DNA from: an uncultured Candidatus Peribacteria bacterium
Lineage (GTDB): Bacteria > Patescibacteriota > Gracilibacteria > UBA4473
DNA length: 64,000 bases
NCBI GenBank assembly: GCA_964344775.1
Contig: CAYFOO010000001.1
Location: forward strand, 13,087-77,086
Reading direction: 5' to 3'
The notes beneath the pieces are model-generated. The model saw only the letters and a list, made by a program, of their open reading frames with translations, did not search any database and was not told the origin of the DNA. The position numbers were made by a program, and so were the translations under genes. Position 1 is the stretch's first letter. The number at the start of each line of letters is the position of its first letter. Positions 2,196 through 62,448 of the stretch are shown here, one piece after another.

Positions 2196-2804
2196 TCATT
2201 CTACATTCCGCATTCCGAGTTCCGCGTTTAAAAAATTTTCCATTTCCCTCGCTGCTTTCCCCCGATGCGACACCGCATTTTTTTCAAATTTCGTCATCGC
2301 CGAATAAACCTGATCTGATCCTTCTGGCACAAAAACCGCCGAAACCGGAATCCCTGGCTCCATCTCTGTAGCCAAATCCTCCAAAATCACTCCCGAAGTA
2401 GTTCCCAACACCACATTTTCAATATTTCGTACGGGATCAAAAAAAGCCATCGCAGAATAAAAGGTTGCTCGACGGTTTTCGACGCCATCCATGAGATTCA
2501 TAAATTTTTCCAGCCATTCTTCATCCGTACCAGAAGGAATCTCTCGCCGCGTCCGGAGTCCAAACTTCTCCGGAAAGGCCTCCAGAATAATACCAGAATC
2601 CTCCCCCAGCGTAGGCACCTGAAATTGGCGACCAAAATACTGAGCTTTCAAAAGTGCATTTGCTTCAAAAGTCATACCATCCTCCTCCACATCTGGAACA
2701 GAGGGAAAATCAGAAAGCAGTAAAAACTCAAAATCATCCCCAAAAAATTCCAGCATTTCTTGAGCCTTCCCTGTGTTTCCAGTAGCGAGAAGTATTTTTT
2801 TCAT
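2196..2804 (-). CDS. rdgB: non-canonical purine NTP pyrophosphatase (RdgB/Ham1 family)
   Basis: N-terminal LLATGNTGKAQEM motif and SHRGKA near the C-terminus. The last ~11 codons (NAELGMRNVE) are encoded by the heptamer array 2197..2231. Confidence 0.85.
   Translation of the reverse strand: MKKILLATGNTGKAQEMLEFFGDDFEFLLLSDFPSVPDVEEDGMTFEANALLKAQYFGRQFQVPTLGEDSGIILEAFPEKFGLRTRREIPSGTDEEWLEKFMNLMDGVENRRATFYSAMAFFDPVRNIENVVLGTTSGVILEDLATEMEPGIPVSAVFVPEGSDQVYSAMTKFEKNAVSHRGKAAREMENFLNAELGMRNVE
2197..2231. repeat. heptamer array CATTCTA CATTCCG CATTCCG AGTTCCG CGTTTAA
   Basis: Same family as 15360..15387, 15812..15839 and 42526..42560. This copy encodes the RdgB C-terminus. Confidence 0.75.
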
Positions 2805-3002
2805 AATTTTTTTGAAAAATTTTTAATTTTGTAATTTTTAATTTTATAAATAATTTTTTAAATCTTAATTTTTAAAGAAGAGTTTTAATTTAAATTTGTT
2901 TAGAATTTAAAAATTAGAGTTTATTTGACCATCGCCATTTGGCGAGGTTAGTCCGCCTCAAAGAGAGCGGTAGTAAAAATTTGTGCTTAAAAATTAAAAA
3001 TT
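2805..3002. repeat. AT-only composite heptamer repeat, copy A (contains a GC-module insertion)
   Basis: Shares an exact 38-mer (2816..2853 = 38095..38132) with copy B. Shares an exact 29-mer (2974..3002 = 36974..37002) with copy C. Confidence 0.8.
2927..2974. mobile_element. 48-nt GC-rich two-hairpin module inserted into AT-rich repeat copy A
   Basis: Copy C reads ...AAAAATTAGAAATTATTT|AAAAATTTGTGCTT... uninterrupted. Copy A has GACCATCGCCATTTGGCGAGGTTAGTCCGCCTCAAAGAGAGCGGTAGT at that junction. A sibling lies at 58617..58661. Confidence 0.6.
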
Positions 3003-3308
3003 CAACCCTTTTGATTTCTTGATACTTTGATCCTCTTTAAATATGAACTTCAGAGTTCGCCTCGATTCCACTTCTTTAGCCAACTCATGACTAATTTTAC
3101 CAGATACTCCATTGAGTTTATCAAGCCATCCTTTTTTTGCTCCGATGGAAGAAAGAAAAATATGTCCCCACTCTAGATCTCCAGAGATTTCCACTGCCGT
3201 TATCGTCAAAAATCCAATCTCGTCTGGAGATAAAAACTGCTGAATAATCGGACCAATCTTTTCCTGAACCACGCCGGCTAGTTTTTGACTGCGAGGAGAG
3301 ATTTTCAT
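2994..3308 (-). CDS. rbfA: ribosome-binding factor A
   Basis: 104 aa, RbfA-like (SQKLAGVVQEKIGPIIQ, LTITAVEISGDLEWGHIFLS). Its start forms an ATGA overlap with the stop of the upstream toxin gene. Confidence 0.8.
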   Translation of the reverse strand: MKISPRSQKLAGVVQEKIGPIIQQFLSPDEIGFLTITAVEISGDLEWGHIFLSSIGAKKGWLDKLNGVSGKISHELAKEVESRRTLKFIFKEDQSIKKSKGLNF

Positions 3309-3550
3309 CGCAATCCCTTATACGTTTTCTCACCTCTTTTGGCTACCTTTTTTACAAAAATCTTATTATTTTTAAGTGCAAAAATAACACGATAATCCCC
3401 TTTTCTTACTCGATACAAATCGTCCTTGCCTGTAATTTTTTTCACTTCCAGAGTTTTTAAATTCTCTGGTGTTATTTCCTTCAAAAAAGCCAAAATATTT
3501 TCTCGTTCTTTTTTGGATATTTTTCGCAATAACTTTTCCAAGTCATTCAT
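3305..3550 (-). CDS. RelE/ParE-family toxin (type II TA)
   Basis: 81 aa with the signature LYRVRKGDYRVIF. ATGA overlaps with the antitoxin gene upstream and with rbfA downstream. Confidence 0.65.
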   Translation of the reverse strand: MNDLEKLLRKISKKERENILAFLKEITPENLKTLEVKKITGKDDLYRVRKGDYRVIFALKNNKIFVKKVAKRGEKTYKGLR

Positions 3551-3774
3551 TTGAGTGAATTTTCCAAAGCCGCAACAAAATCATCAATTTTCACCCCTTT
3601 CCCGGCATTAAATTCATCTGCATCAAATATCACTTCTTCATTTTGCACAGGTTCTAAAACTATTTTTTCTCCTTCTTCATGGGCGAAATACATTTTTGCC
3701 TTCCTTTTTTCACGCCATTTTTTGGGGATTGTCACCTGCCCTGTCCCAAAAATTTTTAAAACTGTTGAACTCAT
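3547..3774 (-). CDS. AbrB/MazE/SpoVT-type antitoxin
   Basis: Start moved to ATG 3774. MSSTVLKIFGTGQVTIPKKWRE is the swapped-hairpin DNA-binding motif. The ORF-track start at 3855 adds only an AT-rich, non-protein-like leader. Confidence 0.6.
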   Translation of the reverse strand: MSSTVLKIFGTGQVTIPKKWREKRKAKMYFAHEEGEKIVLEPVQNEEVIFDADEFNAGKGVKIDDFVAALENSLK

Positions 3775-3884
3775 ATTTATATAATTTGTAAATTTATATA
3801 AATTATATAGTATAAAGTATTCTCCGTCAAGACATTTTTCCTCAAAAATTGACACTCATCCCACTTCCCGCCATAATTTAAACA

Positions 3885-10492: not shown

Positions 10493-10527
10493 ACTTTTGA
10501 CTTTTAACTTTTAACTTTCGACTTATT
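10493..10527. repeat. heptamer array ACTTTTG ACTTTTA ACTTTTA ACTTTCG ACTTATT
   Basis: Non-coding or 5'-coding copy of the ACTTTTG family, sitting exactly where a hypF start codon is expected. Confidence 0.75.
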
Positions 10528-12759: not shown

Positions 12760-13183
12760 TTGTCCCACCAGCTTTTTCAACCGCTTTTTTTGCAGATTCG
12801 GAAATTGGCACCCCAGCGATCTCTACTTTTTTTGTAATTTTTCCGTTCCCCAAAATCTTAGCCATTTCTTTTTTACTTATTAGGTTTTTTGTCCGAAGAG
12901 AATCAATAGTCACCTTTTCTTTGTCTTTAAAATTTTCTTCCAAAACAGATAAATTAATGGCTCGGACCGCTACACGATTTGGATTTTTGAATCCTCGTAA
13001 TTTTGGCATTCGATCTAGAACTCCAGATTGTCCTCCTTCAAATCCAAGTCGTACACCACCTCCTGCTCGAGCGTTTTGCCCATTCATACCTCGACCAGAG
13101 AAAGTTCCTCTACCACTCCCATCACCTCGTCCAACTCTTTTTCGAGTTTTCCGTGCATTTGGCTTCAATTCATTTAGCTTCAT
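12752..13183 (-). CDS. rplO: 50S ribosomal protein L15
   Basis: RVGRGDGSGRGTFSGRGMNGQNARAGGG and the rest are typical L15. Last gene of the spc-like block. Confidence 0.95.
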   Translation of the reverse strand: MKLNELKPNARKTRKRVGRGDGSGRGTFSGRGMNGQNARAGGGVRLGFEGGQSGVLDRMPKLRGFKNPNRVAVRAINLSVLEENFKDKEKVTIDSLRTKNLISKKEMAKILGNGKITKKVEIAGVPISESAKKAVEKAGGTIS

Positions 13184-13212
13184 TGTTAATTAGTTGTTAG
13201 TTATTATTTTCA

Positions 13213-13240
13213 GGTTGTAGGTTATAGGTGGTAGGTGGGA
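13213..13240. repeat. heptamer array GGTTGTA GGTTATA GGTGGTA GGTGGGA
   Basis: Left arm of the S5|L15 spacer structure. Confidence 0.75.
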
Positions 13241-13275
13241 GGGATTTGTTTAAATTATGCCCTACCCTACTCCGC

Positions 13276-13295
13276 CGTCCCGAGGACTCGGGACG
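13276..13295. repeat. GC hairpin CGTCCCGAG-GA-CTCGGGACG
   Basis: Centre of the S5|L15 spacer. An inverted sibling with a shared flank lies at 54629..54656. Confidence 0.8.
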
Positions 13296-13304
13296 AAGGC
13301 CGGG

Positions 13305-13332
13305 CAACCTACAACTTCCCACTTACAACCTT
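13305..13332. repeat. heptamer array CAACCTA CAACTTC CCACTTA CAACCTT
   Basis: Reverse-complement family of 13213..13240 (right arm). Confidence 0.75.
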
Positions 13333-14265
13333 TTATTTTTTACTTTTAGCTTTCGACTTTTTGCCTGTTTCCTCTTTCTTCTTCGTTGTTTTCGCTTTTC
13401 CCTTGTCCTCCGTAGCTTTAGCGGAGGAGGATTCCTTCTTTACTGGTGCTTTCTTTTTTACTGCCTTTTTTTCCTCTTCTGTAGTTTTTTCACTTTTAAC
13501 TTTCGACTTTTGACTTTTGACTTCTTCACTTTCCACTTCTGCCTTTTTCTTGTTACTTGGTGGTGCTTCTGTTCGAAGTAAATTTAATGCTTCAAAAGTA
13601 GCATAAGCGGTATTCAACCTATTTCGTGAACCATGAGATTTAGAAAGCACATTTTTGATCCCTGCTAGGTCCAAAATAGTTCGTACTGATCCTCCTGCGA
13701 TCACCCCCGTACCTTCTGGTGCTGGAATTAAAATTACTTTGGTTGCTTTGAAGTAAGCTTCAATATCGTGAGGAATAGAATCTTCAAAAATTGGAACCGT
13801 CACTAATTTTTTCTTTGCCGCTGCTACAGCTTTTTGGATCCCTACCATCACTTCTGTTGCTTTTCCTACCCCAAGTCCGACTCGTCCTTTTTTGTCTCCA
13901 ATCGCTACCGTCACTTGAAATCGCATTCGTCGTCCTCCCTTCACCACACGAGTCACCCGAGAAATCCGGAGGATACTTTCTTCAAATTCCTTTTTTTCTC
14001 GTTCTCGTCCACCACCTCGACGACCACCACGACCACCTCTCTGACGTTTATCCTTGTGATCCCGGAGGTCTCTTTGATCTGGCTTCCCTTTTTCATCAGC
14101 CTTTTTTTCCTCTTTCTTCTCAGAAGCTTCCCTGTCGGTAGAAGCTGAAGCAGCGGAAGATTCTTCTGCCGATTTTTCAGTGGAAGCATCTTCAGGCTGT
14201 GTGGCCACCTCTGCTGGTGCAGCAGTTCCTTCTTTTTCCGGTGTTGTAGTAGCGTCTTCAGACAT
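13333..14265 (-). CDS. rpsE: 30S ribosomal protein S5 with long N- and C-terminal low-complexity extensions
   Basis: The core (ISRVTRVVKGGRRMRF...GTGVIAGGSVRTILDLAGIKNVLSKSHGS) is flanked by about 95 aa of acidic/RGG sequence and about 85 aa of Lys-rich tail. The tail is encoded by repeat modules. Confidence 0.9.
   Translation of the reverse strand: MSEDATTTPEKEGTAAPAEVATQPEDASTEKSAEESSAASASTDREASEKKEEKKADEKGKPDQRDLRDHKDKRQRGGRGGRRGGGREREKKEFEESILRISRVTRVVKGGRRMRFQVTVAIGDKKGRVGLGVGKATEVMVGIQKAVAAAKKKLVTVPIFEDSIPHDIEAYFKATKVILIPAPEGTGVIAGGSVRTILDLAGIKNVLSKSHGSRNRLNTAYATFEALNLLRTEAPPSNKKKAEVESEEVKSQKSKVKSEKTTEEEKKAVKKKAPVKKESSSAKATEDKGKAKTTKKKEETGKKSKAKSKK
13342..13362. repeat. heptamer array ACTTTTA GCTTTCG ACTTTTT (last codons of rpsE)
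   Basis: Encodes ...KSKAKSKK. Confidence 0.7.
13401..13431. repeat. CCTTGTCCTCCGTAGCTTTAGCGGAGGAGGA module inside the rpsE tail
   Basis: Family CCTGTCCGCCGTAGCCTTGGCGAAGGAGGA (42178..42210, 33288..33320). Translated as SSSAKATEDKG. Confidence 0.7.
13492..13526. repeat. heptamer array ACTTTTA ACTTTCG ACTTTTG ACTTTTG ACTTCTT inside the rpsE tail
   Basis: Encodes VKSQKSKVKS, the identical peptide to the carA insertion. Confidence 0.8.
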
Positions 14266-14341
14266 TATTATTTAGTTATAAATTTTTTCCTTAATTTTAA
14301 ACTTTGCATTTTAAATTTTTAATTTTGAAATTTTGATGAAA

Positions 14342-14680
14342 TCAAAACTTCAACCCTCCTTCGCGAGCTCCTTCTGCCAAGGCTTTTACTTGGCCATGGT
14401 ATTGATAACCATTTCGATCAAAGGCTACTTCTTCTACTTTTTTGGTCTTTGCCAATTTAGCAATTTCAGTCCCTACTTTTTTTGCTCCTTCGATTCCTGC
14501 TTTTCCTTTTAAGTTTGATGTTCCACAGAGTACTTTCCCAGTGCTGTCATCAACAATCTGAGCATAAATTGCTCGCAGAGAACGAAAAACAATCAGTCTA
14601 TTTCTTTCACTTGCACGAGCCTGTGCATGAGTTCTTCTCGCACGAGCTTGTCTTCTGTTAGCTTTTTCTTGGATATTCAT
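14342..14680 (-). CDS. rplR: 50S ribosomal protein L18
   Basis: 112 aa, typical L18 ([45 protein letters not shown]). Confidence 0.95.
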
Positions 14681-14742
14681 TTGTTCTTATTTACAAGATA
14701 TTTTCGTCACCCTGAGCGAAGTCGAAGGGTCTACCTTAATTT

Positions 14743-15300
14743 TTATGCTGCTTTAGCAGCGGATTTACCGGCTTTTCGAGCAACCTGCTCATCAATGTAC
14801 CGGATTCCTTTTCCTTTGTACGGCTCTGGTTTCCGATATTCACGAATATTAGCCGCTACCTGCCCTACCAATTGTTTATTGATTCCAGAAATCATAACAA
14901 TGTTATTATTTTTCTCATCTGGAAAACTGATTTCGATCCCTTCAGGAATGTTGAAATTGATTGGATGAGAAAATCCCAATTGCATTTCTAGAATTTTCCC
15001 CTTCAGGGCCACTCGATACCCTACTCCTTTGATCTCCAGAGTTTTGCTAAATCCATTTGATACCCCATCAACTAAATTTTGAGCAAGACTTTGATAAAGC
15101 CCATGTCGAGATTTAGCTTCCTTAGAATCATCTTTTCGACTTACCAAAAGTTGTCCATCTTCTATTTTTAGAGAAACATATTCTGGTTCAAATTTTTGGG
15201 TAAGTGTTCCCTTCGCTCCTTTTACAGACAATACATCATCCTGGATGGATATCTCCACTCCTGATGGTACAACTACTGGTTTATTTCCTATTCGAGACAT
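14743..15300 (-). CDS. rplF: 50S ribosomal protein L6
   Basis: 185 aa, begins MSRIGNKPVVVPSGVEI and contains LEIKGVGYRV. Confidence 0.95.
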   Translation of the reverse strand: MSRIGNKPVVVPSGVEISIQDDVLSVKGAKGTLTQKFEPEYVSLKIEDGQLLVSRKDDSKEAKSRHGLYQSLAQNLVDGVSNGFSKTLEIKGVGYRVALKGKILEMQLGFSHPINFNIPEGIEISFPDEKNNNIVMISGINKQLVGQVAANIREYRKPEPYKGKGIRYIDEQVARKAGKSAAKAA

Positions 15301-15303
15301 GAT

Positions 15304-15394
15304 TTAGTTATTAGTGGTTAGTTATTAGTGGTTAGTTTTTAGTTCTTAGTTTTTAATTCCGAAATCCGCATTTCGCATTCCGAAATTGAATTAG
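15304..15394. repeat. 13-unit in-phase heptamer array filling the whole rplF-rpsH spacer
   Basis: TTAGTTA TTAGTGG TTAGTTA TTAGTGG TTAGTTT TTAGTTC TTAGTTT TTAATTC CGAAATC CGCATTT CGCATTC CGAAATT GAATTAG. Confidence 0.85.
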
Positions 15395-15765
15395 CTTATT
15401 TCACATAATATTTCCCCCCCGATCTTCAATGCCCTGGCTTCATATCCCGTCATTACTCCTTTTGAAGTAGAAACGACCAATATTCCAAATCCGTTTGCTA
15501 CTTTCCGAATATCCTCTGCCCCAATGTAAATTCTCTGTCCTGGCTTCGAAACTCTTTTAAGGTTCATTGATTTTTCTGGTAATTCCAACTTGAGCACATC
15601 AAACTTATCAGCCTTTTCTTTTTTCACAGACTTCAAAAAATCATTTTTTTGCATTACTTTTGCAATTCGTTCTTTTGCTTGAGAATAAGGAATTTCTACC
15701 ATCCCCTGCTCAGCCATCTGAGCATTTCTGATTCGAGTGAGAAAATCTGCAATTGGATCGGTCAT
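15391..15765 (-). CDS. rpsH: 30S ribosomal protein S8
   Basis: 124 aa, begins MTDPIADFLTRIRNA and contains STSKGVMT. Confidence 0.95.
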   Translation of the reverse strand: MTDPIADFLTRIRNAQMAEQGMVEIPYSQAKERIAKVMQKNDFLKSVKKEKADKFDVLKLELPEKSMNLKRVSKPGQRIYIGAEDIRKVANGFGILVVSTSKGVMTGYEARALKIGGEILCEIS

Positions 15766-15769
15766 ATTA

Positions 15770-15846
15770 TTAGTTGTTAGAACTTAGAGCTTAGTTATTA
15801 GTTTTTTAATTCCGAAATCCGCATTCCGCGTTCCAAAATCGGATTA
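15770..15846. repeat. 11-unit in-phase heptamer array filling the whole rpsH-rpsN spacer
   Basis: TTAGTTG TTAGAAC TTAGAGC TTAGTTA TTAGTTT TTTAATT CCGAAAT CCGCATT CCGCGTT CCAAAAT CGGATTA. Confidence 0.85.
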
Positions 15847-16068
15847 CCACGATGATTTACGAACTCCTGGGATTTGCCCTTTTTCGGCGAGTTCTCGGAA
15901 GCAGCATCGGCAAATCCCAAAGTCTCGCATAAATCCATGAGGTCTTCCACAGAGTTTACAACGATTGTACGCTCGAGTAGAAAATTTTATCTTCCGCCCT
16001 TCCTTCTTCGCCTGAAGATGTCTGGCTAGAAATTTCTGAGATTTGTGAACGATTGCTTTTCGTGCCAT
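15844..16068 (-). CDS. rpsN: 30S ribosomal protein S14, zinc-binding (type Z)
   Basis: [10 protein letters not shown]...[22 protein letters not shown]. At 74 aa it is slightly longer than the usual type Z form. Confidence 0.9.
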
Positions 16069-16080
16069 TTTTTAAAAAAA

Positions 16081-16635
16081 TTATTCTTTCTTGAAAGGAA
16101 AATTAAAAGATTCAAGAAGTTTCAACGCGTGCTCTGAATTCTCAGAGGTGGTTACAATAGTTACTTGAAATCCAAAAGGTTGATTAAGCTCGTCACTCAG
16201 CTCCACTTCTGGGAAAACAGTATGCTCGGTAAACCCAATAGAACAGTTTCCTTTTTTATCAAAGATCCTTCTAGAAACCCCTCGGAAGTCTCGTACCCGT
16301 GGAAAAACCACATTGATCATCTTGTCGAGAAAATCATACGCTCGATCTTTTCGGAGAGTTACGGCTAATCCTACTGGCATTCCTTCTCGAAGCTTGAAGT
16401 TGGAAACAGAAAGCCGTGCTTTTCTGACAGATGGTTTTTGTCCTGTAATCTGTGTGATCGCGTTAGCCAAAAGTTCTTCGTGTTTTTTTCCAGTTCTGTG
16501 TAAATAAGAGCCCATCCCCACATTGATACAAATTTTCTCAATTCTTGGAACCTCCATTACATTTTTAAGTCCCAAATCCTTTTGCAATTTGGCAATTCCT
16601 GTTTTTCGAAAATCGGTAAGTAGATTTGATTTCAT
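16081..16635 (-). CDS. rplE: 50S ribosomal protein L5
   Basis: 184 aa, typical L5 blocks (NVMEVPRIEKICINVGMG, RDFRGVS). Confidence 0.95.
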   Translation of the reverse strand: MKSNLLTDFRKTGIAKLQKDLGLKNVMEVPRIEKICINVGMGSYLHRTGKKHEELLANAITQITGQKPSVRKARLSVSNFKLREGMPVGLAVTLRKDRAYDFLDKMINVVFPRVRDFRGVSRRIFDKKGNCSIGFTEHTVFPEVELSDELNQPFGFQVTIVTTSENSEHALKLLESFNFPFKKE

Positions 16636-16637
16636 GA

Positions 16638-16979
16638 TTATGCTTTCACAGCAGTTTTAGTTTTTTTAGCGAGAGGTAGGACTTTACCAGAAGATTTTGA
16701 AATACGTGTTTTTTTGCCGCTGTCACTAAGTTTGTATCCAATCCGTGAAGGTTTCTTTGTTTCTGGATCGATGATCGCAATGTTGGAAATATGGATTGGA
16801 GCAAAAAACTCTACTCGTTCTCCCGGCTCTCCACCTCGTGGTTTTACGTGTTTTACTTTCTTATTTATACCTTCAACTTGCACAAGACCTCGATTTTCAA
16901 AAATTTTGAAAATTGCACCTTGTTTTCCTTTGTCTTTACCGGTTTGTACGACTACGTTGTCTCCAATTCGAAATTTCAT
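16638..16979 (-). CDS. rplX: 50S ribosomal protein L24
   Basis: KOW motif (IGDNVVVQTGKDKGKQG). It is the first gene of the block, and no L14 lies upstream. Confidence 0.9.
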   Translation of the reverse strand: MKFRIGDNVVVQTGKDKGKQGAIFKIFENRGLVQVEGINKKVKHVKPRGGEPGERVEFFAPIHISNIAIIDPETKKPSRIGYKLSDSGKKTRISKSSGKVLPLAKKTKTAVKA

Positions 16980-17126
16980 GACGTGTAAAAATTGGCTTAA
17001 ATAAGATAAAAGCCGGCAGATTCTATGAAGAAATAGGTCTTTGTCAAGGAAATTTAGGGAGTAATTGCCGATTTTGGGTTCTCCACAAAAAAATAGTTAA
17101 AAATAAAACCACTTTCCCCTCTTTAT

Positions 17127-21557: not shown

Positions 21558-22632
21558 ATTCATCAAAAAGATATGCCGCATCCTCCGGCCCCGCACACGC
21601 CTCCGGATGAAACTGTACGGAAAAGATTGGTTTTCCTTTGTGTCGGATACCTTCAACAGACCCATCATTGAGATTTTTGAACCAAACCTCAAAATCAGGC
21701 GGCAAAGAATCCCCATCCACCTCGTATCCGTGATTTTGCGAAGTAATTAAACACCTTTTTGTACCACTTTTGACTTTTGACTTTTGACTTTTGACTTGAA
21801 TTACCGGCTGATTCACCCCCCGATGTCCGTATTTCATCTTTTTTGTTTTTCCTCCCGCAGCAAGTGAAAGAATCTGATTTCCCAAGCAAATCCCAAAAAT
21901 CGGTAATTCCCTTGTCATCGACTGCCGAGCAATTTCGATGGTCTCCACTACTTTTTCTGGATCTCCTGGCCCATTGGAAATGAAAATGCCATCAATCTTC
22001 TCTCCCAGATCAAAAGGTGGATGATTGTACGGCATTCGTAAAATTCGGATTCCTCGCTGAAGAAAATTTCGTAGAATTCCATTCTTCGCTCCACAATCCA
22101 TAAAAGCAATCGTTTTTCCGGTCGGATTTTCCGGTTCCAGAATTTCCATTCCTTCCGGAGAAACAGAGGGGACAAATCTTCCCCCCAGTTCATCTTCAAA
22201 TTTCACTGGTTTTTTGTCGCCCAATTTACCCAAGATTGTTCCCTTTTCTCGTAGAATTTGTGTTAACTCCCGTGTATCAATCCCAGAAATCGCTGGAATA
22301 CCTTGCTCTTTGAGCCAATCCATAAAACTTTTCACTGCTTCGCAATGAGAGAACTTCAACGATTCTTCGGTTAAAATGACTCCTCGAACCCAGATTTTTT
22401 TACTTTCAAATGTTTGATCTACGTTGTCCTGAAAAGACTTTACTTCCGGCACACCATAGTTCCCAATCAGCGGAAAAGTGAACGTCACGATTTGTCCAAA
22501 ATAGCTCGGATCCGTGAGAGTTTCGAGATATCCGGTCATTCCGGTAGTGAAAACAACCTCCCCTTCGGCTTCGCTCTCTGCTCCGAAAGAGGTACCTTCA
22601 AATGTTTTTCCGTTCGCGAGAAAGAGTTTCAT
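21541..22632 (-). CDS. carA: carbamoyl-phosphate synthase small (glutaminase) subunit, with in-frame repeat insertion
   Basis: Typical CarA blocks (GICLGNQIL, GHRGVNQPV, ITSQNHGYEV, FSVQFHPEA). VKSQKSKVKS is encoded by four exact ACTTTTG units at 21766..21793. No carB is adjacent. Confidence 0.9.
   Translation of the reverse strand: MKLFLANGKTFEGTSFGAESEAEGEVVFTTGMTGYLETLTDPSYFGQIVTFTFPLIGNYGVPEVKSFQDNVDQTFESKKIWVRGVILTEESLKFSHCEAVKSFMDWLKEQGIPAISGIDTRELTQILREKGTILGKLGDKKPVKFEDELGGRFVPSVSPEGMEILEPENPTGKTIAFMDCGAKNGILRNFLQRGIRILRMPYNHPPFDLGEKIDGIFISNGPGDPEKVVETIEIARQSMTRELPIFGICLGNQILSLAAGGKTKKMKYGHRGVNQPVIQVKSQKSKVKSGTKRCLITSQNHGYEVDGDSLPPDFEVWFKNLNDGSVEGIRHKGKPIFSVQFHPEACAGPEDAAYLFDEFIREL
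21766..21798. repeat. (ACTTTTG)x4 exact + ACTTG inside carA
   Basis: Exact tandem units counted directly. Confidence 0.9.
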
Positions 22633-35327: not shown

Positions 35328-36863
35328 TTATTTTTTAACCACAGAATTGATCACCTCCAAATATGCTAAAATCGCCGCCCTCACAATATCACAATCCCCC
35401 ACTCGTGCGGTCAAAATTCGACCGTCATCAGTCTCCATCCGTACCTTTACGATCGCCTGTGCATCAAGCCCCGAAGTCACACTATCCATCTCGAAGTCGG
35501 TGAGTTTTCCGTGTTTGCCACAGAGTTCCTCAATTGCTTGATAGGCCGCATCGACCATCCCAGTTCCAGATTTTTCGGAAGTGACCGTTTTACCACTTTC
35601 GGTATTCTTCAAACTAACTTTTGCCTGCGGTGTCTGATCTTGACCAGAACTGACAGAAAAATCCACCAACTCCCAGAATCCACTTGGCTTTTTTTCACCC
35701 ATCAAAAATACGTCCAAATCTGCGTCCGTAATTTCCTTTTTCATATCCGCTAATTTTTTAAATTTCTCAAAAACCTCATTCAACTTTTCATCGGAAACTT
35801 GATAGCCAAGCTCATTCAAACGACTTTTGAGAGCTGCACGACCAGAATGTTTACCGAGCACGATTTCGGTTTTTTCGACTCCCACGGATTCAGGAGTAAG
35901 AATCTCATACGTTTCTTTGTGAGCCAACATTCCATGCTGATGGATTCCCGATTCATGGGCAAAGGCATTTCGTCCGACAATCGCTTTATTTGACTGCACT
36001 CTTTGTCCCGTGATTTGCTCAAGCAACTTGGAGGTTTTGTAGATCTCCGTAGTTTTGATCCCTGTCTCCAAATCATAAAAGTCCTTCCGAGTTCTCAAAG
36101 TCATCACCACTTCCTCCAGTGCCGCATTCCCAGCTCGCTCCCCTGCTCCATTGATCGTACACTCAATCTGTCGGGCTCCATTTTTGACTCCCGCGAGAGA
36201 GTTCGCTCCCGCAAGGCCCAAATCATTGTGACAATGAGTAGCAAAGATCACCTGGTCTGCATTTCGAACATTTAAAACTAAAAACCCTATCAATTCTCCA
36301 AACTCCTCCGGCGTGAGATATCCCACCGTATCCGGAATGTTGATGGTATCTGCTCCTGCTTCAATCGCCACTTCGATAATTTTTACGAGGAAATCACGAT
36401 CAGATCGTCCCGCATCTTCCGGAGAAAAATCCACTCGATCGCAAAGACTTTTCGCTAATTTCACGCCCTCCACTGCCATTTGCAAAACTTCTTCAGAAGA
36501 CTTCTTCAATTTGTATTCCATGTGGATCGGACTCGTCGCGATGAAGGTGTGAATCCGCGGTTTTTTGGCCAACTTCACTGCATCCCAGGCCGCTCGAATA
36601 TCCTTTTCTATTGTTCGTGCTAACCCACAAACTTCGGTAGTTTCCAAAGTCTTGGCAATCATCTCCACGGCTGCAAAATCATCCGGACTCGCTATCGGAA
36701 ATCCAGCCTCGATCACATCCACGCCCAGATTCTCCAGCTGCACAGCGAGACGAATCTTCTCTTCCAAATTCATAGAGAATCCCGGTGCCTGCTCCCCATC
36801 ACGCAGGGTGGTATCGAAGATTTTTACGTAATTATCGTTGTTCATAGTAGTTAAATTAGGCAA
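35328..36863 (-). CDS. leuA: 2-isopropylmalate synthase
   Basis: IFDTTLRDGEQAPG and HCHNDLGLA, plus a C-terminal LeuA regulatory domain. Confidence 0.92.
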   Translation of the reverse strand: MPNLTTMNNDNYVKIFDTTLRDGEQAPGFSMNLEEKIRLAVQLENLGVDVIEAGFPIASPDDFAAVEMIAKTLETTEVCGLARTIEKDIRAAWDAVKLAKKPRIHTFIATSPIHMEYKLKKSSEEVLQMAVEGVKLAKSLCDRVDFSPEDAGRSDRDFLVKIIEVAIEAGADTINIPDTVGYLTPEEFGELIGFLVLNVRNADQVIFATHCHNDLGLAGANSLAGVKNGARQIECTINGAGERAGNAALEEVVMTLRTRKDFYDLETGIKTTEIYKTSKLLEQITGQRVQSNKAIVGRNAFAHESGIHQHGMLAHKETYEILTPESVGVEKTEIVLGKHSGRAALKSRLNELGYQVSDEKLNEVFEKFKKLADMKKEITDADLDVFLMGEKKPSGFWELVDFSVSSGQDQTPQAKVSLKNTESGKTVTSEKSGTGMVDAAYQAIEELCGKHGKLTDFEMDSVTSGLDAQAIVKVRMETDDGRILTARVGDCDIVRAAILAYLEVINSVVKK

Positions 36864-37003
36864 TTTTTAATTTCCAATTTTTAATTTTTAAATAAATTTT
36901 AAATCTTAATTTTTAAGGTTTTATATTTTAGTGAAGTAATTTTAGTTTAAGATTTTAAAAATTAGAAATTATTTAAAAATTTGTGCTTAAAAATTAAAAA
37001 TTT
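36864..37003. repeat. AT-only composite heptamer repeat, copy C (empty site)
   Basis: CAATTTT TAATTTC CAATTTT TAATTTT TAAATAA ATTTTAA ATCTTAA TTTTTAA ..., ending in the 29-mer shared with copy A. Confidence 0.8.
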
Positions 37004-37007
37004 TCCC

Positions 37008-37069
37008 AAAAAATCGGCCTTTTTTGGCCGAGGTTCATCTTTTATTAATTTAGAAAAATCTACCTCGGC
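37008..37069 (-). promoter_or_regulatory. putative leu attenuator (antiterminator/terminator switch)
   Basis: GCCGAGG (37069..37063) is complementary to CCUCGGC (37033..37027). That segment overlaps the terminator stem UCGGCC-A6-GGCCGA (37031..37014), which is followed by U6 (37013..37008). Confidence 0.55.
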
Positions 37070-37116
37070 TCACGTACAAGTAACAACAGCAAGAAACCAA
37101 GTGTTAGATTTTTCAT
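37060..37116 (-). CDS. putative leucine leader peptide MKNLTLGFLLLLLVREPR
   Basis: 18 codons, 7 of them Leu and 5 consecutive. GGAG lies 4 nt upstream. The last codons form the 5' arm of an antiterminator that competes with a terminator hairpin just upstream of leuA. Confidence 0.55.
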   Translation of the reverse strand: MKNLTLGFLLLLLVREPR

Positions 37117-37124
37117 CTGTCTCC

Positions 37125-37152
37125 AGACTAGTGATTTAGCGTGTTTTGTCAA
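37125..37152 (-). promoter_or_regulatory. candidate promoter TTGACA-16-TAGTCT in front of the leu leader
   Basis: The -35 is at 37152..37147 and the -10 at 37130..37125. It would place the TSS at or within a few nt of the leader AUG. Confidence 0.35.
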
Positions 37153-37158
37153 ACAGGG

Positions 37159-37332
37159 TCACAATCCTAGGCGTAAAACATCATCTACTCCTCCAACAAT
37201 TATAACTCTTTCTGTTTCTGTTGCAGTCTTTTTTCTTGGGCTTTTTCCACTTACACACCCAAGTGCACACACATCTCTTACTACTTCTTTATAAAAACAG
37301 TCATCGCCACCTTTTTCTGCTTCTTCTGCCAT
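37159..37332 (-). CDS. possible unannotated 57-aa protein
   Basis: My own translation: MAEEAEKGGDDCFYKEVVRDVCALGCVSGKSPRKKTATETERVIIVGGVDDVLRLGL. It falls below the ORF-track size cutoff. Its composition is more protein-like than the competing plus-strand ORF 37221..37616. No domain recognised. Confidence 0.3.
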   Translation of the reverse strand: MAEEAEKGGDDCFYKEVVRDVCALGCVSGKSPRKKTATETERVIIVGGVDDVLRLGL

Positions 37333-38087: not shown

Positions 38088-38215
38088 AAATTAGAAAATT
38101 TTTAATTTTGTAATTTTTAATTTTATAAATAAATCCTAATTTTTAATTTTTAAAAATAGCAAAAAACAGTCTCTAAGAATTTGACTTTAAAAATTTGAGC
38201 ATTAAAAATTCCTTA
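38088..38215. repeat. AT-only composite heptamer repeat, copy B
   Basis: Contains the exact 38-mer AAAATTTTTAATTTTGTAATTTTTAATTTTATAAATAA shared with copy A. Boundaries are approximate. Confidence 0.75.
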
Positions 38216-41917: not shown

Positions 41918-41973
41918 AATTCGTAATTCGTAATTTGTAATTGAAGATTGGTAATTGAATCACTGCTCACTCT
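41918..41973. repeat. heptamer array AATTCGT AATTCGT AATTTGT AATTGAA GATTGGT AATTGAA TCACTGC TCACTCT
   Basis: Runs across the stop and last codons of the NDP-sugar transferase. Confidence 0.8.
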
Positions 41974-43091: not shown

Positions 43092-43140
43092 CTAAAAACT
43101 AAGAACTAAAAACTAACAACTAAACTACTTCCACTTAATC
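43092..43140. repeat. heptamer array CTAAAAA CTAAGAA CTAAAAA CTAACAA CTAAACT ACTTCCA CTTAATC
   Basis: Reverse-complement family of TTAGTTN. It spans the redoxin stop codon. Confidence 0.75.
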
Positions 43141-57237: not shown

Positions 57238-57265
57238 AATTTCTCGGAAAACTTTCCAAATTTTT

Positions 57266-57293
57266 GAATTTTGAATTTTGAATTTTGAATTTT
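57266..57293. repeat. (GAATTTT)x4 exact
   Basis: Lies between the first and second genes of the secreted-protein operon. Confidence 0.9.
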
Positions 57294-58132
57294 TAATCAT
57301 TGGTGGTGATGAGTTCTTCATAATCCTCTCCGGCATGTTGGTCGCAGAGTTCTGAGGCGGCGTAGTTAAATTTGTCCGGGAATTTGTAGATGGCTTTTCG
57401 GAGGATGGTGCTCATGGCATGTGTTTTTTTGAGAGCCTCCCAGATGGTGGTGAGCCACATGTGAAATCGGTAATTTTGTTCCCATTTTTGATAACGATAG
57501 AGAGTTTCGAAGAGGGCTTTTTTTGATTTTTCTAGTTCAGCTCTGTGCTTTCCTTTATTGCCTCGGTCTGCTTCAAAAAAGCCCACGTTAGTTTTTTCTT
57601 CGAATTGTTTTTCTGCATGGGATTCATCCAGGATCTTCCATTCGATGTATTCTTGGTAGGCACAAAACTCGTTCATCACGGTTTCTGTGACATGACAGGC
57701 AGAATAAAATTTATCAATCGTGGGATTATAGTCTTCTGTGGGGCACATGCTCTCGTATCCGTTGTTGATCTGAGATTTTATCGTCTCCTGCATGTTTTCA
57801 GAGGGTGTGCATTCATCGTTTCTTTCGATGTCTTCGAAGTTGGCCGTGCTGGGAATTTCTTTCCAGATACGGGTAAAGTCCGCATTCATATGATTGATCG
57901 ATTGGGCCATGGCGTCATTGAAGAGGCAGTTGATCTTTTTTTGATATTTTTCCTGTGCTTGAACAAGTGGCTCATCTAGTGAATAACTCAAAGAAGAGTG
58001 GCACAGCTGCTTCTGCGTCATTTCTGCGAAGTTGTCTCGGAGCCCACTGTCTAAAGAAAAAGCTGCAGGAACTTGAAAGATGAATGTTCCGAGCAAAAAT
58101 ATGGAAATGACCCTTTTTTTGTTTTTGTTCAC
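57293..58132 (-). CDS. secreted hypothetical protein (first gene of operon)
   Basis: Signal peptide ...FIFQVPAAFS. 7 Cys. No recognisable domain. Confidence 0.6.
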   Translation of the reverse strand: MNKNKKRVISIFLLGTFIFQVPAAFSLDSGLRDNFAEMTQKQLCHSSLSYSLDEPLVQAQEKYQKKINCLFNDAMAQSINHMNADFTRIWKEIPSTANFEDIERNDECTPSENMQETIKSQINNGYESMCPTEDYNPTIDKFYSACHVTETVMNEFCAYQEYIEWKILDESHAEKQFEEKTNVGFFEADRGNKGKHRAELEKSKKALFETLYRYQKWEQNYRFHMWLTTIWEALKKTHAMSTILRKAIYKFPDKFNYAASELCDQHAGEDYEELITTND

Positions 58133-58205
58133 GAGGATATTTTAGAGGATCAATTTGGGTTTTTCAATGAACAATTAAATAATCGAAAACAAAAAATTAA
58201 AAATC

Positions 58206-58233
58206 GTAGGGACGTGTCGCGACACGTCCCTAC
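58206..58233. repeat. 28-nt perfect palindrome GTAGGGACGTGTCGCGACACGTCCCTAC
   Basis: Intergenic sibling of the tilS palindrome. It differs by GT/AC versus AA/TT, changed on both arms. Confidence 0.9.
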
Positions 58234-58256
58234 TGGGGGATTGTTTTTTAATTTTT

Positions 58257-58313: not shown

Positions 58314-58592
58314 ATGGCTCACAAAAAAGCAGGTGGTTCCAGTAAAAACGGTCGAGACTCCAACGCCAAAAGACGTGGAGTGAAGAGATTTGGTGGACAC
58401 AAGGTTGAAGCCGGAGAAATCCTCGTACGTCAAAAAGGAACCAAGCTTCGTCCTGGAGAAAATGTAGGAATGGGGAAAGATTTTACGCTTTTTGCAGAAA
58501 TTGCTGGGAAAGTAACCTTTTCAGAAAAAGCAATTCGCCGGTTTGATGGACGGAGATACCCGAAACGGTTTGTGAGTGTGATGCCAGCATAG
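58314..58592 (+). CDS. rpmA: 50S ribosomal protein L27
   Basis: [24 protein letters not shown]... No L21 gene upstream. Confidence 0.95.
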
Positions 58593-58616
58593 GTAGAACT
58601 TAGTTTTTAGAGCTTA

Positions 58617-58661
58617 GCCATCGCCATTCGGCGAGGCTACTACGCTGGAGAGCGTACGTAG
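58617..58661. repeat. GC two-hairpin module GCCATCGCCATTCGGCGAGGCTACTACGCTGGAGAGCGTACGTAG
   Basis: Sibling of the 2927..2974 insertion. It is embedded between two GTAGAACTTAG words (58593..58603 and 58658..58668). Confidence 0.7.
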
Positions 58662-58790
58662 AACTTAGAGAAATTCGAAGTTCTTTTTTTTACAGATTTG
58701 AATAAATAAAATAAATATTTACAATCTTAAAAACTTAATTTTAATATTTAAAACTAAGTTCTAACAACTAATCTCTAAGTTCTAGTAACT

Positions 58791-60709: not shown

Positions 60710-60931
60710 AGAAAAAAGTTTTTAGTTTTTCGTTATTTAGTTTTTAGTTATCAACAATTTGAAGTAAACCTAAATTTAGAGACTGCGGCTATTGTGTAGT
60801 AAATCAGCGGAAATTGCAAGGGGATTTTTTTGGACGATTATTAATGACGGAAGAATAGGGGGGCCATCCTACTGCAAACTTTACAAATGAATATGAGCTT
60901 TGGAGGATACGTTAAAAATTACGAGAATTAT

Positions 60932-60959
60932 TTGACAACTCCTTTCATAAACATAGAAT
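60932..60959 (+). promoter_or_regulatory. candidate promoter TTGACA-16-TAGAAT for rpsS-rplV-rpsC
   Basis: Hexamers were counted directly, 26 nt before the ATG at 60985. Confidence 0.45.
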
Positions 60960-60984
60960 CACGCGGCTTTAATCCCTAAATTCG

Positions 60985-61254
60985 ATGACAAGATCCTCAA
61001 AGAAAGGGCCATACGTAGATCCTCGCCTCATGAAAAAGGTGAATGCTATGGAGGCAGCTGGCCAAAAAAAGGTAATCAAAACCTGGTCACGGGCTTGTGT
61101 GATTGCTCCAGAGTTTGTGGGGCACACGTTTGGGGTGCATAATGGGAAGGAGCATATTCCGGTTTTTTGCTCAGAATCTATGGTGGGGCACAGACTGGGA
61201 GAGTTCTCTCCAACTCGTAGATTTAGGAGTCATGGAGGGAAATTAGCGAAGTAA
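60985..61254 (+). CDS. rpsS: 30S ribosomal protein S19
   Basis: SSKKGPYVD...HNGKEHIPV. Has its own TTGACA-16-TAGAAT promoter, and no L2 lies upstream. Confidence 0.95.
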
Positions 61255-61258
61255 AAAA

Positions 61259-61293
61259 GTGGGAAGTTGTAGGTTGTAAGTTGTAAGGCATAA
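61259..61293. repeat. heptamer array GTGGGAA GTTGTAG GTTGTAA GTTGTAA GGCATAA
   Basis: Left arm of the S19|L22 spacer. Confidence 0.8.
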
Positions 61294-61310
61294 TTCAATT
61301 TTTAAAATCC

Positions 61311-61345
61311 CTACAACCTATTACCTACCACTTACAACCTGAAAA
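61311..61345. repeat. heptamer array CTACAAC CTATTAC CTACCAC TTACAAC CTGAAAA
   Basis: Right arm of the S19|L22 spacer, the reverse-complement family of the left arm. Confidence 0.8.
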
Positions 61346-61371
61346 ATTTATAACTCAATTTAAAATTATTA

Positions 61372-61704
61372 ATGAAAGCACATCTGAGAGGAATTCGAAT
61401 TTCACCGAAAAAAGCCAATGTAGTGGCTGGATTGGTTCGTGAGAAGAAAGCTTTGGAAGCTTTGGAAATTTTGAAATTCACTCCCAAAAAAGCAGCAAAA
61501 GTGTTGTACAAAGTACTTCATTCAGCAGTAGCCAATGCGGAAGGAAACGACAAAAAGAAAAAAGAAGACCTGCAAATAAAAGATATCACCGTAAACAAAG
61601 GGCCGGTTTACAAAAGGTATCTTCCTTCTACCCGAGGAAGGGCATTGCCAATTCAAAAACCTACTTCACATATTTCTATTGAGTTGGAAGTACCAAATTC
61701 ATAA
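61372..61704 (+). CDS. rplV: 50S ribosomal protein L22
   Basis: 110 aa (RISPKKANVVAGLVREKKALEAL...). Confidence 0.9.
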   Translation: MKAHLRGIRISPKKANVVAGLVREKKALEALEILKFTPKKAAKVLYKVLHSAVANAEGNDKKKKEDLQIKDITVNKGPVYKRYLPSTRGRALPIQKPTSHISIELEVPNS

Positions 61705-61719
61705 TTTCATCAAAAAAAC

Positions 61720-62364
61720 ATGGGAAAAAAAGTTAGTCCGATATCTCTCCGAATAGGAATCACCCGAACTTGGGATTCTCTCTGGTACGATCGAAAGAAT
61801 TTTGCTCAAAAGTTTCTCCAGGACATCGCTATTCGGAAGTTTCTCAAAGAAAAAGGCAAGGAAGCGGGTATCGCAAAAATAGAAATTCACAGACATCCAG
61901 GAAAAACAGCGATCATCGTCCACTGCGGAAAACCGGGAATTATCATTGGTCGAAGCGGTGAAAATGTAGAATTACTTACCAAAGAATTGCGATCAAAGTT
62001 CGGAGAAGCGTTTGAACTTTCTATTCAAGAAATCCGAAAACCGGATGGGAATGCAGAGCTTGTAGCGGCTTCTGTGGCAGATCAAATCTCTCGAAGGTTC
62101 CCATACCGTCGGGTAGCAAAAATGGCAATAGATCGAGCAAAGGAATCTGGAGCAAAAGGAATTAAAATCACCGTGAGTGGGCGTCTCAATGGAGTGGATA
62201 TTGCCCGAAGAGAAAGTTATGCCTTTGGAACCGTACCGCTTCATACTTTACGGGCAAACATTGATTATGCCACCGCTCGAGCAGAAACTACTTATGGAAC
62301 TATTGGGGTGAAGGTATGGATTTATCAGGGATTGGTTTTTAAAAACGAAAAATTGAACGGTTAA
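61720..62364 (+). CDS. rpsC: 30S ribosomal protein S3
   Basis: MGKKVSPISLRIGI..., a KH domain, and GRLNGVDIARRE. No L16 follows. Confidence 0.95.
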   Translation: MGKKVSPISLRIGITRTWDSLWYDRKNFAQKFLQDIAIRKFLKEKGKEAGIAKIEIHRHPGKTAIIVHCGKPGIIIGRSGENVELLTKELRSKFGEAFELSIQEIRKPDGNAELVAASVADQISRRFPYRRVAKMAIDRAKESGAKGIKITVSGRLNGVDIARRESYAFGTVPLHTLRANIDYATARAETTYGTIGVKVWIYQGLVFKNEKLNG

Positions 62365-62448
62365 TCTTTTTTGAAACGAAGAAATAGTGGGTATGCCAAA
62401 AATGCTCCAGCCTTTTTTGTTTTTTTGCTAAAAAACGCAAGGGGATAG

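Follow-up and report, generated by a model that had tools for sequence, protein, structure and literature searches.

The window analysed here comprises 64,000 nt from an uncultured Candidatus Peribacteria bacterium (assembly GCA_964344775.1, contig CAYFOO010000001.1, positions 13,087 to 77,086 of the forward strand). Two of its intergenic spacers, one between rbfA (ribosome-binding factor A) and a Ham1/RdgB-type NTP pyrophosphatase gene, the other downstream of rpmA (ribosomal protein L27), carry related GC-rich segments of 48 nt and 44 nt that each fold into two hairpins. These segments, here called module A and module S, are discrete non-coding blocks, present or absent as a unit with sharp boundaries at two independent sites. 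Here we describe both sites together with their empty counterparts, and present the case that the module is probably a very small mobile element.

Filled and empty sites of the module

Module A (GACCATCGCCATTTGGCGAGGTTAGTCCGCCTCAAAGAGAGCGGTAGT) lies in the spacer 2805-2993, between the rbfA stop codon and the start of the Ham1/RdgB-type gene on the minus strand. It is nested in an AT-rich composite repeat (composite A) built of AATTTTT-type units with period 7/15, and its GC content of 56%, compared with 8% and 11% in its two flanks, makes it a compositional island. Three other copies of the composite, B and C in the window and D just outside it, are module-free. The earlier note, made from the sequence of the window, had recognized the repeats A, B and C, and alignment confirms all three, together with the exact 38-mer common to A and B (2816-2853 = 38095-38132) and the exact 29-mer common to A and C (2974-3002 = 36974-37002). 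Its observation that the GC segment of A is missing at the corresponding junction of C holds as well: an affine-gap global alignment of A and C contains one gap, 48 nt long and spanning exactly 2927-2974, and MAFFT agrees. The empty allele constructed by removal of the module joins CACAAATTTTTA directly to AATAAACTC.

Because the sequence of the composites is nearly two-letter, the similarity of the flanks was controlled by dinucleotide shuffles. The right flanks of A and C are identical at 28 of 28 positions and the nearest 28 nt on the left at 24 of 28. The observed score was reached by 0 of 1000 shuffles for the right flank and by 0 of 1000 for the whole left part; over the nearest 50 nt to the left of the module the similarity is modestly significant only (7 of 1000 shuffles). 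Composites A and C are colinear on both sides of the junction. The earlier note had allowed for a deletion in C, which would be indicated if most copies of the composite carried the segment with variable boundaries; three of the four copies are without it.

In a sister species (GCA_964344165.1), which is present in the same samples as the window genome, no more than 9 nt separate rbfA from the Ham1 gene, so that the 189-nt spacer A represents an insertion or expansion in the lineage of the window. The C-termini of RbfA differ between the two species, and the end of the window rbfA is derived from the composite arm, whose positions 2994-3002 contribute the two final codons (N, F) together with the stop.

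A contig of an independent sample (Logan, SRR22722185, L003) is 100% identical to the window over a stretch of 393 nt that takes in rbfA, the 29-mer arm and the module. Its positions 963-1057, which correspond to window 2926-2805, switch exactly at the far edge of the module to a D-like composite variant. As this contig shows, the module is stable and it is the AT arms that are swapped, by recombination between paralogous composites. A search for the Ham1-side contig of this strain, and one for contig sequence past the end of the window, yielded nothing new. Two independent assemblies contain the junction of rbfA, flank and module, namely the MEGAHIT assembly of ERR2281802 (ENA contig L001) and the Logan contig L003. 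Logan contigs of a further run, ERR2281803, end at the junction of flank and module at copy A (L002 = window 2974) and right after hairpin 1 of S (L005 = window 58636). With k=31, the shared 29-mer is too short to account for the first of these breaks, so that the assembly graph may plausibly branch there between filled and empty alleles or between variants in the population; the contig ends are no more than suggestive.

The 100%-identical tracts and the arm swap at the module edge point to exchange of sequence among the AT composites by recombination. Comparison of A with C alone could therefore reflect a conversion mosaic, for which reason the orthologous evidence at site S matters.

At site S the stop codon of rpmA is followed by a TTAG-type heptamer array, which is broken by the module, and the canonical intrinsic terminator of rpmA stands directly 3' of the module, which places module S within the rpmA 3' untranslated region (UTR). 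The empty site was located via homologues of the lineage-specific 198-aa gene downstream, of which there are 23, the closest relative being 71% identical. On contig L089 of the sister species the order of minus-strand gene, rpmA, 198-aa gene and CNNM gene is kept, and the spacer at the position of the module reads TAATTAGAACTTAGTCTATAGAGCTTAG directly followed by AACTCAGATTGTTTTGAGTTTTTTT. Affine alignment of the two spacers gives one 44-nt gap, equal to 58618-58661, with 64 of 78 positions identical in the upstream flank. The array of L089 is uninterrupted (TTAGAAC TTAGTCT ATAGAGC TTAGAAC TCAGATT). Without module S the window reads GTAGAAC TTAGTTT TTAGAGC TTAGAAC TTAGAGA, which restores in-phase heptamers; the module splits one heptamer, TTAG^AAC, of an array that is otherwise in phase. 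The empty allele constructed in this way joins GAGCTTAG to AACTTAGAG. L089 also has the orthologous rpmA terminator, with a changed stem. As true filled and empty versions of one orthologous locus, module S and L089 are stronger evidence than the comparison of paralogues alone.

These results sharpen what had been proposed before. Insertion of the modules into heptamer arrays is supported by the gap at S and the recovery of array phase. The sibling module had been placed in a TTAG-type array between two GTAGAACTTAG words; the array is there, but the second word consists partly of the last bases of the module itself (GTAG), continued by the flank AACTTAG. Where the earlier note saw direct evidence of mobility in the comparison of A and C, that pair is weaker than was thought, given the recombination among composites, and the mobile reading is supported by the orthologous site S.

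Anatomy of the module

In both copies the hairpins stand in tandem with one bulge per hairpin (RNA fold). Hairpin 1 of copy A (~2927-2949) is GACC-A-TCGCC ATTT GGCGA-GGTT and hairpin 2 (~2953-2970) is CCGCCTC AAA GAG-A-GCGG. The fold energy of copy A is -21.1 kcal/mol on the plus strand and -20.2 kcal/mol on the minus strand, compared with ~-10 for shuffles (z ~-4.5), and that of copy S is -23.2 kcal/mol (z -4.3); folding z values are ~-4.3 to -4.5 for both copies, whichever strand is taken.

The copies are linked by a 19-mer, CCATCGCCATTYGGCGAGG, which has exactly two matches in the window, at 2929 and 58618, with 0.02 expected by chance and two or more found in 0 of 100 shuffles. Hairpin 1 is identical at 18 of 19 positions. 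Hairpin 2 of S (TACUACGCU-GGAG-AGCGUA-C-GUA) differs in sequence from that of A while retaining a 9-bp bulged hairpin, and GAGAGCG and the terminal GTAG are common to both copies; a MAFFT alignment of the two modules, as two distinct sequences, leaves out gaps that hairpin 2 needs. The homology of A and S is limited to the module block, and their flanks are unrelated.

The edges of the module can be shifted by one nucleotide (T) at A and by three (TAG) at S. Hairpin 1 begins 0-3 nt from the left edge and hairpin 2 stops 0-4 nt from the right edge. Terminal inverted repeats are absent, the 5' end ACCATCGCC and the reverse complement of the 3' end ACTACCGCT matching at 6 of 9 positions only, and the internal symmetry of the module consists of two separate hairpins with no end-to-end pairing. 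The target-site duplication that the earlier note had suggested looking for is at most T (1 nt) at A and TAG (3 nt) at S; the two lengths differ and are indistinguishable from microhomology or chance. Immediately to its left the module is preceded by TTAG at S and by TATT(T) at A, and TTAGAG(Y)TTA occurs 0-6 nt upstream at both sites.

Module A starts 19 nt from the stop codon of rbfA and module S 25 nt from that of rpmA. Both copies lie 3' of the stop codon and ahead of the next transcription signal, and are thus carried in the 3' UTR. Their orientation relative to transcription is opposite: the rbfA transcript contains the antisense strand of the cassette, the rpmA transcript its sense strand. 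This makes a sequence-specific RNA role unlikely and leaves a DNA-level or orientation-independent hairpin role possible.

A Rho-independent terminator was considered and rejected, as no U-tract follows the hairpins and a terminator scan of 2700-3100 was empty on both strands. The same applies to a tRNA fragment, suggested by the resemblance of GGTTAGTCC to a T-loop, since this feature is missing from copy S. Rfam 15 gave no match in the window at the gathering threshold, and at E<=10 noise only (best 15.6 bits, with a gathering score of 40.4). The search of the window for tRNA and tmRNA found none, and no rRNA is present in it.

Surrounding repeats and genes

The features at and around the two sites are summarized in Table 1.

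Table 1. Coordinates of the modules, their host spacers and the adjoining genes (window positions, unless another contig is named)
Feature	Position	Strand	Basis or remark
Module copy A, GC-rich two-hairpin cassette, 48 nt, 56% GC	2927..2974	+	Single gap relative to copy C, fold, GC island
Module copy S (sibling), 44-nt cassette, 61% GC	58618..58661	+	19-mer, fold, single gap relative to sister-species spacer L089
Ham1/RdgB-type NTP pyrophosphatase gene, downstream of composite A	2196..2804	-	PF01725
AT-rich composite repeat A, rdgB-proximal part	2805..2926	.	38-mer with B; 93% over 43 nt with C; TRF period 7/15
AT-rich composite repeat A, rbfA-proximal arm	2975..3002	.	28/28 identical to copy C
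rbfA (ribosome-binding factor A)	2994..3308	-	PF02033
Composite repeat C, paralogous empty site	36864..37003	.	Module-equivalent junction between 36974 and 36975, between TTATTT and AAAAATT
Composite repeat B, without module, between ssb terminator and ndk	38088..38215	.	Alignment
Composite copy D, without module, just outside the window, between holB and PSP1 gene	L081 13121-13260		
rpmA (ribosomal protein L27)	58314..58592	+	PF01016
TTAG-type heptamer array right after rpmA stop, GTAGAAC TTAGTTT TTAGAGC TTAG^, broken by module S in the fourth unit	58593..58617	+	
Canonical intrinsic terminator of rpmA, GAACTT...AAGTTC + T8, directly 3' of module S	58661..58691	+	Sequence, fold

The AT composite occurs in at least four copies in ~73 kb of genome (the window and 9 kb of the same contig) and has a conserved promoter-like arm, TTAAGATTTA...TA(T/C)AAAAT. 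In composite A a promoter-like TTAAGA-16-TAAAAT lies on the minus strand at 2868-2841, with a scan score not above chance. Copy C has imperfect inverted arms of 48 nt (36862-36909 and 36955-37002) that are 77% complementary. The composite may itself be a mobile or expanding cassette. Directly abutting composite C, on the minus strand at 37004-37160, are an 8-bp inverted repeat, GCCGAGGT...ACCTCGGC, and a canonical terminator, TCGGCC A6 GGCCGA T6; they lie downstream of a called 57-aa open reading frame (ORF) at 37159-37332 (minus strand), and no Rfam match was found.

Tandem arrays of period 7/14 make up much of many spacers of the window, for example at 10493-10524, 13487-13547, 15303-15355, 21766-21797, 41918-41957, 43092-43124, 57262-57297 and 60717-60751. 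Their units are varied and include TTTTGAC, TTAGTTA, ATTCCGC, AATTCGT, CTAAAAA, TTTTGAA, AATTTTT, TTAGNNN and others. Period-7 arrays are also present in the sister species. Long heptamer spacers occur in the ribosomal operon too, which is fragmented (13000-17000 and 60900-62400) with the order L24-L5-(S14)-S8-L6-L18-S5-L15. No L30 gene lies between S5 and L15, HypF rather than SecY follows L15, and S19-L22-S3 is detached from L2 and L16. The missing L30 and the fragmented operon are compatible with, and not diagnostic of, a lineage of the candidate phyla radiation (CPR). Close homologues of RbfA are few (8 matches, the next at 72% identity).

Upstream of rpmA, in an island at 58203-58244, a perfect 28-nt palindrome, GTAGGGACGTGTCGCGACACGTCCCTAC, is found at 58206-58233, with TGGGGGATTG and a T-run behind it. 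The genes on either side are divergent, and the promoter-like TTGACA of rpmA lies downstream of the palindrome. The orthologous sister-species spacer (L089 4041-4190) lacks the palindrome, which may therefore represent another GC hairpin insertion, different from the module. Next to rbfA, between this gene and a holin-like gene, a two-gene pair on the minus strand (3305-3855) consists of a MazE/AbrB-like gene of 75 aa and a partner of 81 aa. The pair is likely a toxin-antitoxin system and is missing at the same position in the sister species (L078).

Origin and relatives of the module

We regard the module as probably a discrete two-hairpin insertion cassette that was copied into at least two unrelated, A/T-rich and 7-nt-periodic spacers. 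It would be a very small non-autonomous element, moved in trans, and the most likely agent would be an enzyme recognising hairpins in single-stranded DNA, of the IS200/IS605- or RAYT-like 'peel and paste' kind. An agent of this type would fit bulged hairpins in subterminal position together with missing terminal inverted repeats and the absence of any clear target duplication. The element may persist at sites where it does no harm, or where a hairpin at the 3' end is of some slight use, and the heptamer arrays may serve as a preferred or tolerated landing zone.

Several results weigh against this interpretation. Only two copies are present in the ~73 kb of genome, and a fuzzy search for hairpin 1 (<=5 mismatches) gave no further copy in the window, in 9 kb more of the contig, in 22 kb of the sister species or in ~60 kb of distant relatives. 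An exact scan for the 19-mer in one genome per each of 185,579 GTDB species returned 52 matches, all of them chance or coding: ~24 fall in gammaproteobacterial dnaA, the others include a Chloroflexi gene, and the single AT-rich match (L055) is part of a glycosyltransferase ORF. In many Gammaproteobacteria (among the scan loci L012-L056) the conserved stretch of dnaA that encodes PRQMAM is identical to CCTCGCCAAATGGCGATGG, the reverse complement of the 19-mer, and this identity is a source of false positives in such scans. A scan of JGI metagenomes with a dnaA-excluding pattern yielded 20 matches, all in GC-rich coding DNA, and IMG/VR yielded 0 for the 19-mer and likewise 0 for the 29-mer flank. 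No transposase, Y1_Tnp, RAYT-type or integrase Pfam domain was found in the called genes of the 77-kb contig. The hairpins of the module are not copies of each other, unlike the left- and right-end hairpins of typical IS200/IS605 elements, and boundary microhomology of 1-3 nt is also expected from hairpin-mediated deletion. The rpmA spacers of more distant relatives are unalignable, which leaves the polarity of insertion or loss at S unrooted.

Site A might instead be a recombination mosaic, in which the module was resident and its AT arms were overwritten up to its edges by gene conversion from paralogous composites. The 100%-identical tracts (the 38-mer with B, the 29-mer with C) inside sequence of ~80-90% similarity agree with such a history, and so does the other strain, in which one arm is replaced by the D-like variant with its breakpoint at the module edge and the preceding 393 nt are 100% identical. 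We nevertheless consider it rather unlikely, as it explains neither site S, a clean 44-nt indel in an orthologous spacer without conversion tract, nor the presence of homologous modules in unrelated flanks, and no resident is needed in the sister species, where the gap between rbfA and Ham1 is 9 nt. Palindromic DNA is prone to deletion, and the module could also be ancestral at both sites and precisely lost from B, C, D and the rpmA spacer of the sister species through slipped-strand or hairpin-mediated excision at 1-3-nt microhomologies. The T at A and the TAG at S would serve such excision, and the polarity at S is unrooted by an outgroup; this history is unlikely all the same, because at least four independent exact losses would be required (B, C, D and the relative), every one of which must restore colinearity and, at S, the heptamer phase as well. 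An earlier copying event between unrelated flanks would still be needed, so that some mobility remains.

Both copies lie 19-25 nt past the stop of a ribosome-associated gene (rbfA, rpmA), the hairpins are stable on both strands, the structure of hairpin 2 is kept despite sequence change, and the module is perfectly conserved between strains while the adjoining AT DNA has diverged. All of this would suit a primarily selected cis-acting element recruited to ribosome-related genes, which might stabilise the 3' UTR or block RNases there, insulate neighbouring transcription units or bind a protein. Such a primary role appears quite improbable in view of the opposite orientations, by which the two mRNAs carry different sequences, the lack of the module at both loci of the sister species, the missing U-tract, the canonical terminator that already stands 3' of S, and the occurrence of two copies only with no Rfam match. 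An assembly artefact or chimera of the metagenomic contig is hardly credible: Logan assemblies are broken nearby by AT-rich repeats, but the same junction is present in independent assemblies from different samples (L001 and L003). Ancestral deletion, mosaic formation and a selected 3'-UTR role are less parsimonious than insertion; each of them still requires an original copying event between unrelated flanks.

The presumed insertion cassette has its closest analogue in the small dispersed repeats (SDRs) of cyanobacteria, which it resembles most in behaviour. The families SDR4-6 of Nostocaceae are said to have been described by Elhai and colleagues in 2008 as very small mobile repeated elements; SDRs (families SDR1-8) are reportedly single units of 21-27 nt that occur many times in a genome, where they cleanly interrupt otherwise colinear sequence, tandem heptamer arrays and other repeats among it, without an obvious transposase, inverted termini or target duplication. 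The module likewise is shorter than 100 nt, non-coding and hairpin-forming, and it sits as a clean insertion in a heptamer array at S, where phase is restored on its removal, and nested in another repeat, the AT composite, at A. It differs from SDRs in its length of 44-48 nt, its two hairpins, its two copies seen in ~73 kb and its host, an uncultured and thinly sampled lineage with no cyanobacterial marker in the window.

MITEs are usually ~100-400 nt in size, with Correia, ERIC, RUP and the IS200/IS605-derived PATEs as examples. The module resembles them as a non-autonomous intergenic insertion that adds hairpins to transcripts. It is smaller than usual, has no terminal inverted repeats and no consistent target duplication or tetranucleotide, and no parent IS was identified. 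In anatomy the module comes closest to miniature elements of the IS200/IS605/REP type, which move as single-stranded hairpins. PATEs insert 3' of a fixed tetra- or pentanucleotide, and their similar left- and right-end hairpins are bound by TnpA. With PATEs the module shares a subterminal imperfect hairpin at each end, the absence of inverted termini and the lack of a clear duplication; no tnpA is found on the 77-kb contig, and the hairpins differ in sequence.

A REP is a short imperfect GC-rich palindrome that has a conserved GTAG 5' of the stem, is mobilised by RAYT (TnpA_REP) and occurs in tens to hundreds of copies, and REPINs are inverted doublets of one REP unit (PMC3116915). In common with these the module has bulged GC-rich palindromes in extragenic positions just past stop codons, in both orientations, with presence or absence in relatives and no inverted termini or clear duplication. 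Its two hairpins are, however, unrelated to each other rather than an inverted doublet, GTAG stands 3' of hairpin 2 in both copies and not 5' of a stem, copy number looks low at 2 per 73 kb, and no Y1_Tnp domain occurs within the 77 kb read. The label MITE/REP-like given in the earlier note finds no support in this form: there are no terminal inverted repeats, the duplication does not exceed 1 nt (A) or 3 nt (S), two copies occur in ~73 kb, and no transposase or RAYT domain is encoded on the 77-kb contig. Membership of the module in the SDR, REP or MITE families is not established.

Arrays of heptamer direct repeats are known as STRR in cyanobacteria and as TAACTGA arrays in Beggiatoaceae, Cyanobacteria and Bacteroidetes (PMC4679880). 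The arrays of the window resemble the cyanobacterial and Beggiatoaceae arrays, in an uncultured lineage that looks unrelated: the landing spacers consist of period-7 units of many types, relatives have shorter spacers without arrays, and assemblies break there. They differ in that the arrays are the context and not the module, in their unit sequences (AATTTTT, TTAGNNN, TTTTGAC, ATTCCGC and others) and in the host lineage.

Reports of SDR-like repeats come from Nostocaceae only (PMC5861425), and PMC3116915 also cites these repeats and their restriction to a lineage. That the module represents an SDR-like class of mobile hairpin cassettes of <50 nt outside cyanobacteria, targeted specifically to heptamer-repeat spacers, is conceivable but doubtful. 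If it were true, there would be a mechanistic link, in bacterial lineages far apart, between period-7 spacer arrays and very small mobile elements. Hairpin cassettes might be captured by single-stranded or slipped DNA exposed in the arrays, perhaps with no need for a dedicated transposase; the AT composite around copy A may then be a mobile promoter-carrying cassette.

Mobile DNA below ~100 nt is barely documented and its movement is unexplained. The present case is a clean example: its boundaries are exact, one empty site is orthologous, one copy is nested in a second repeat, and the arm swap between strains occurs at the boundary. Spacers built from heptamer arrays are common to the host and to the cyanobacteria from which SDRs were described. 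In practical terms, such repeats break short-read assemblies at predictable points. If the link between arrays and hairpins is general, it would offer a testable handle on the purpose of heptamer arrays and on the spread of very small repeats.

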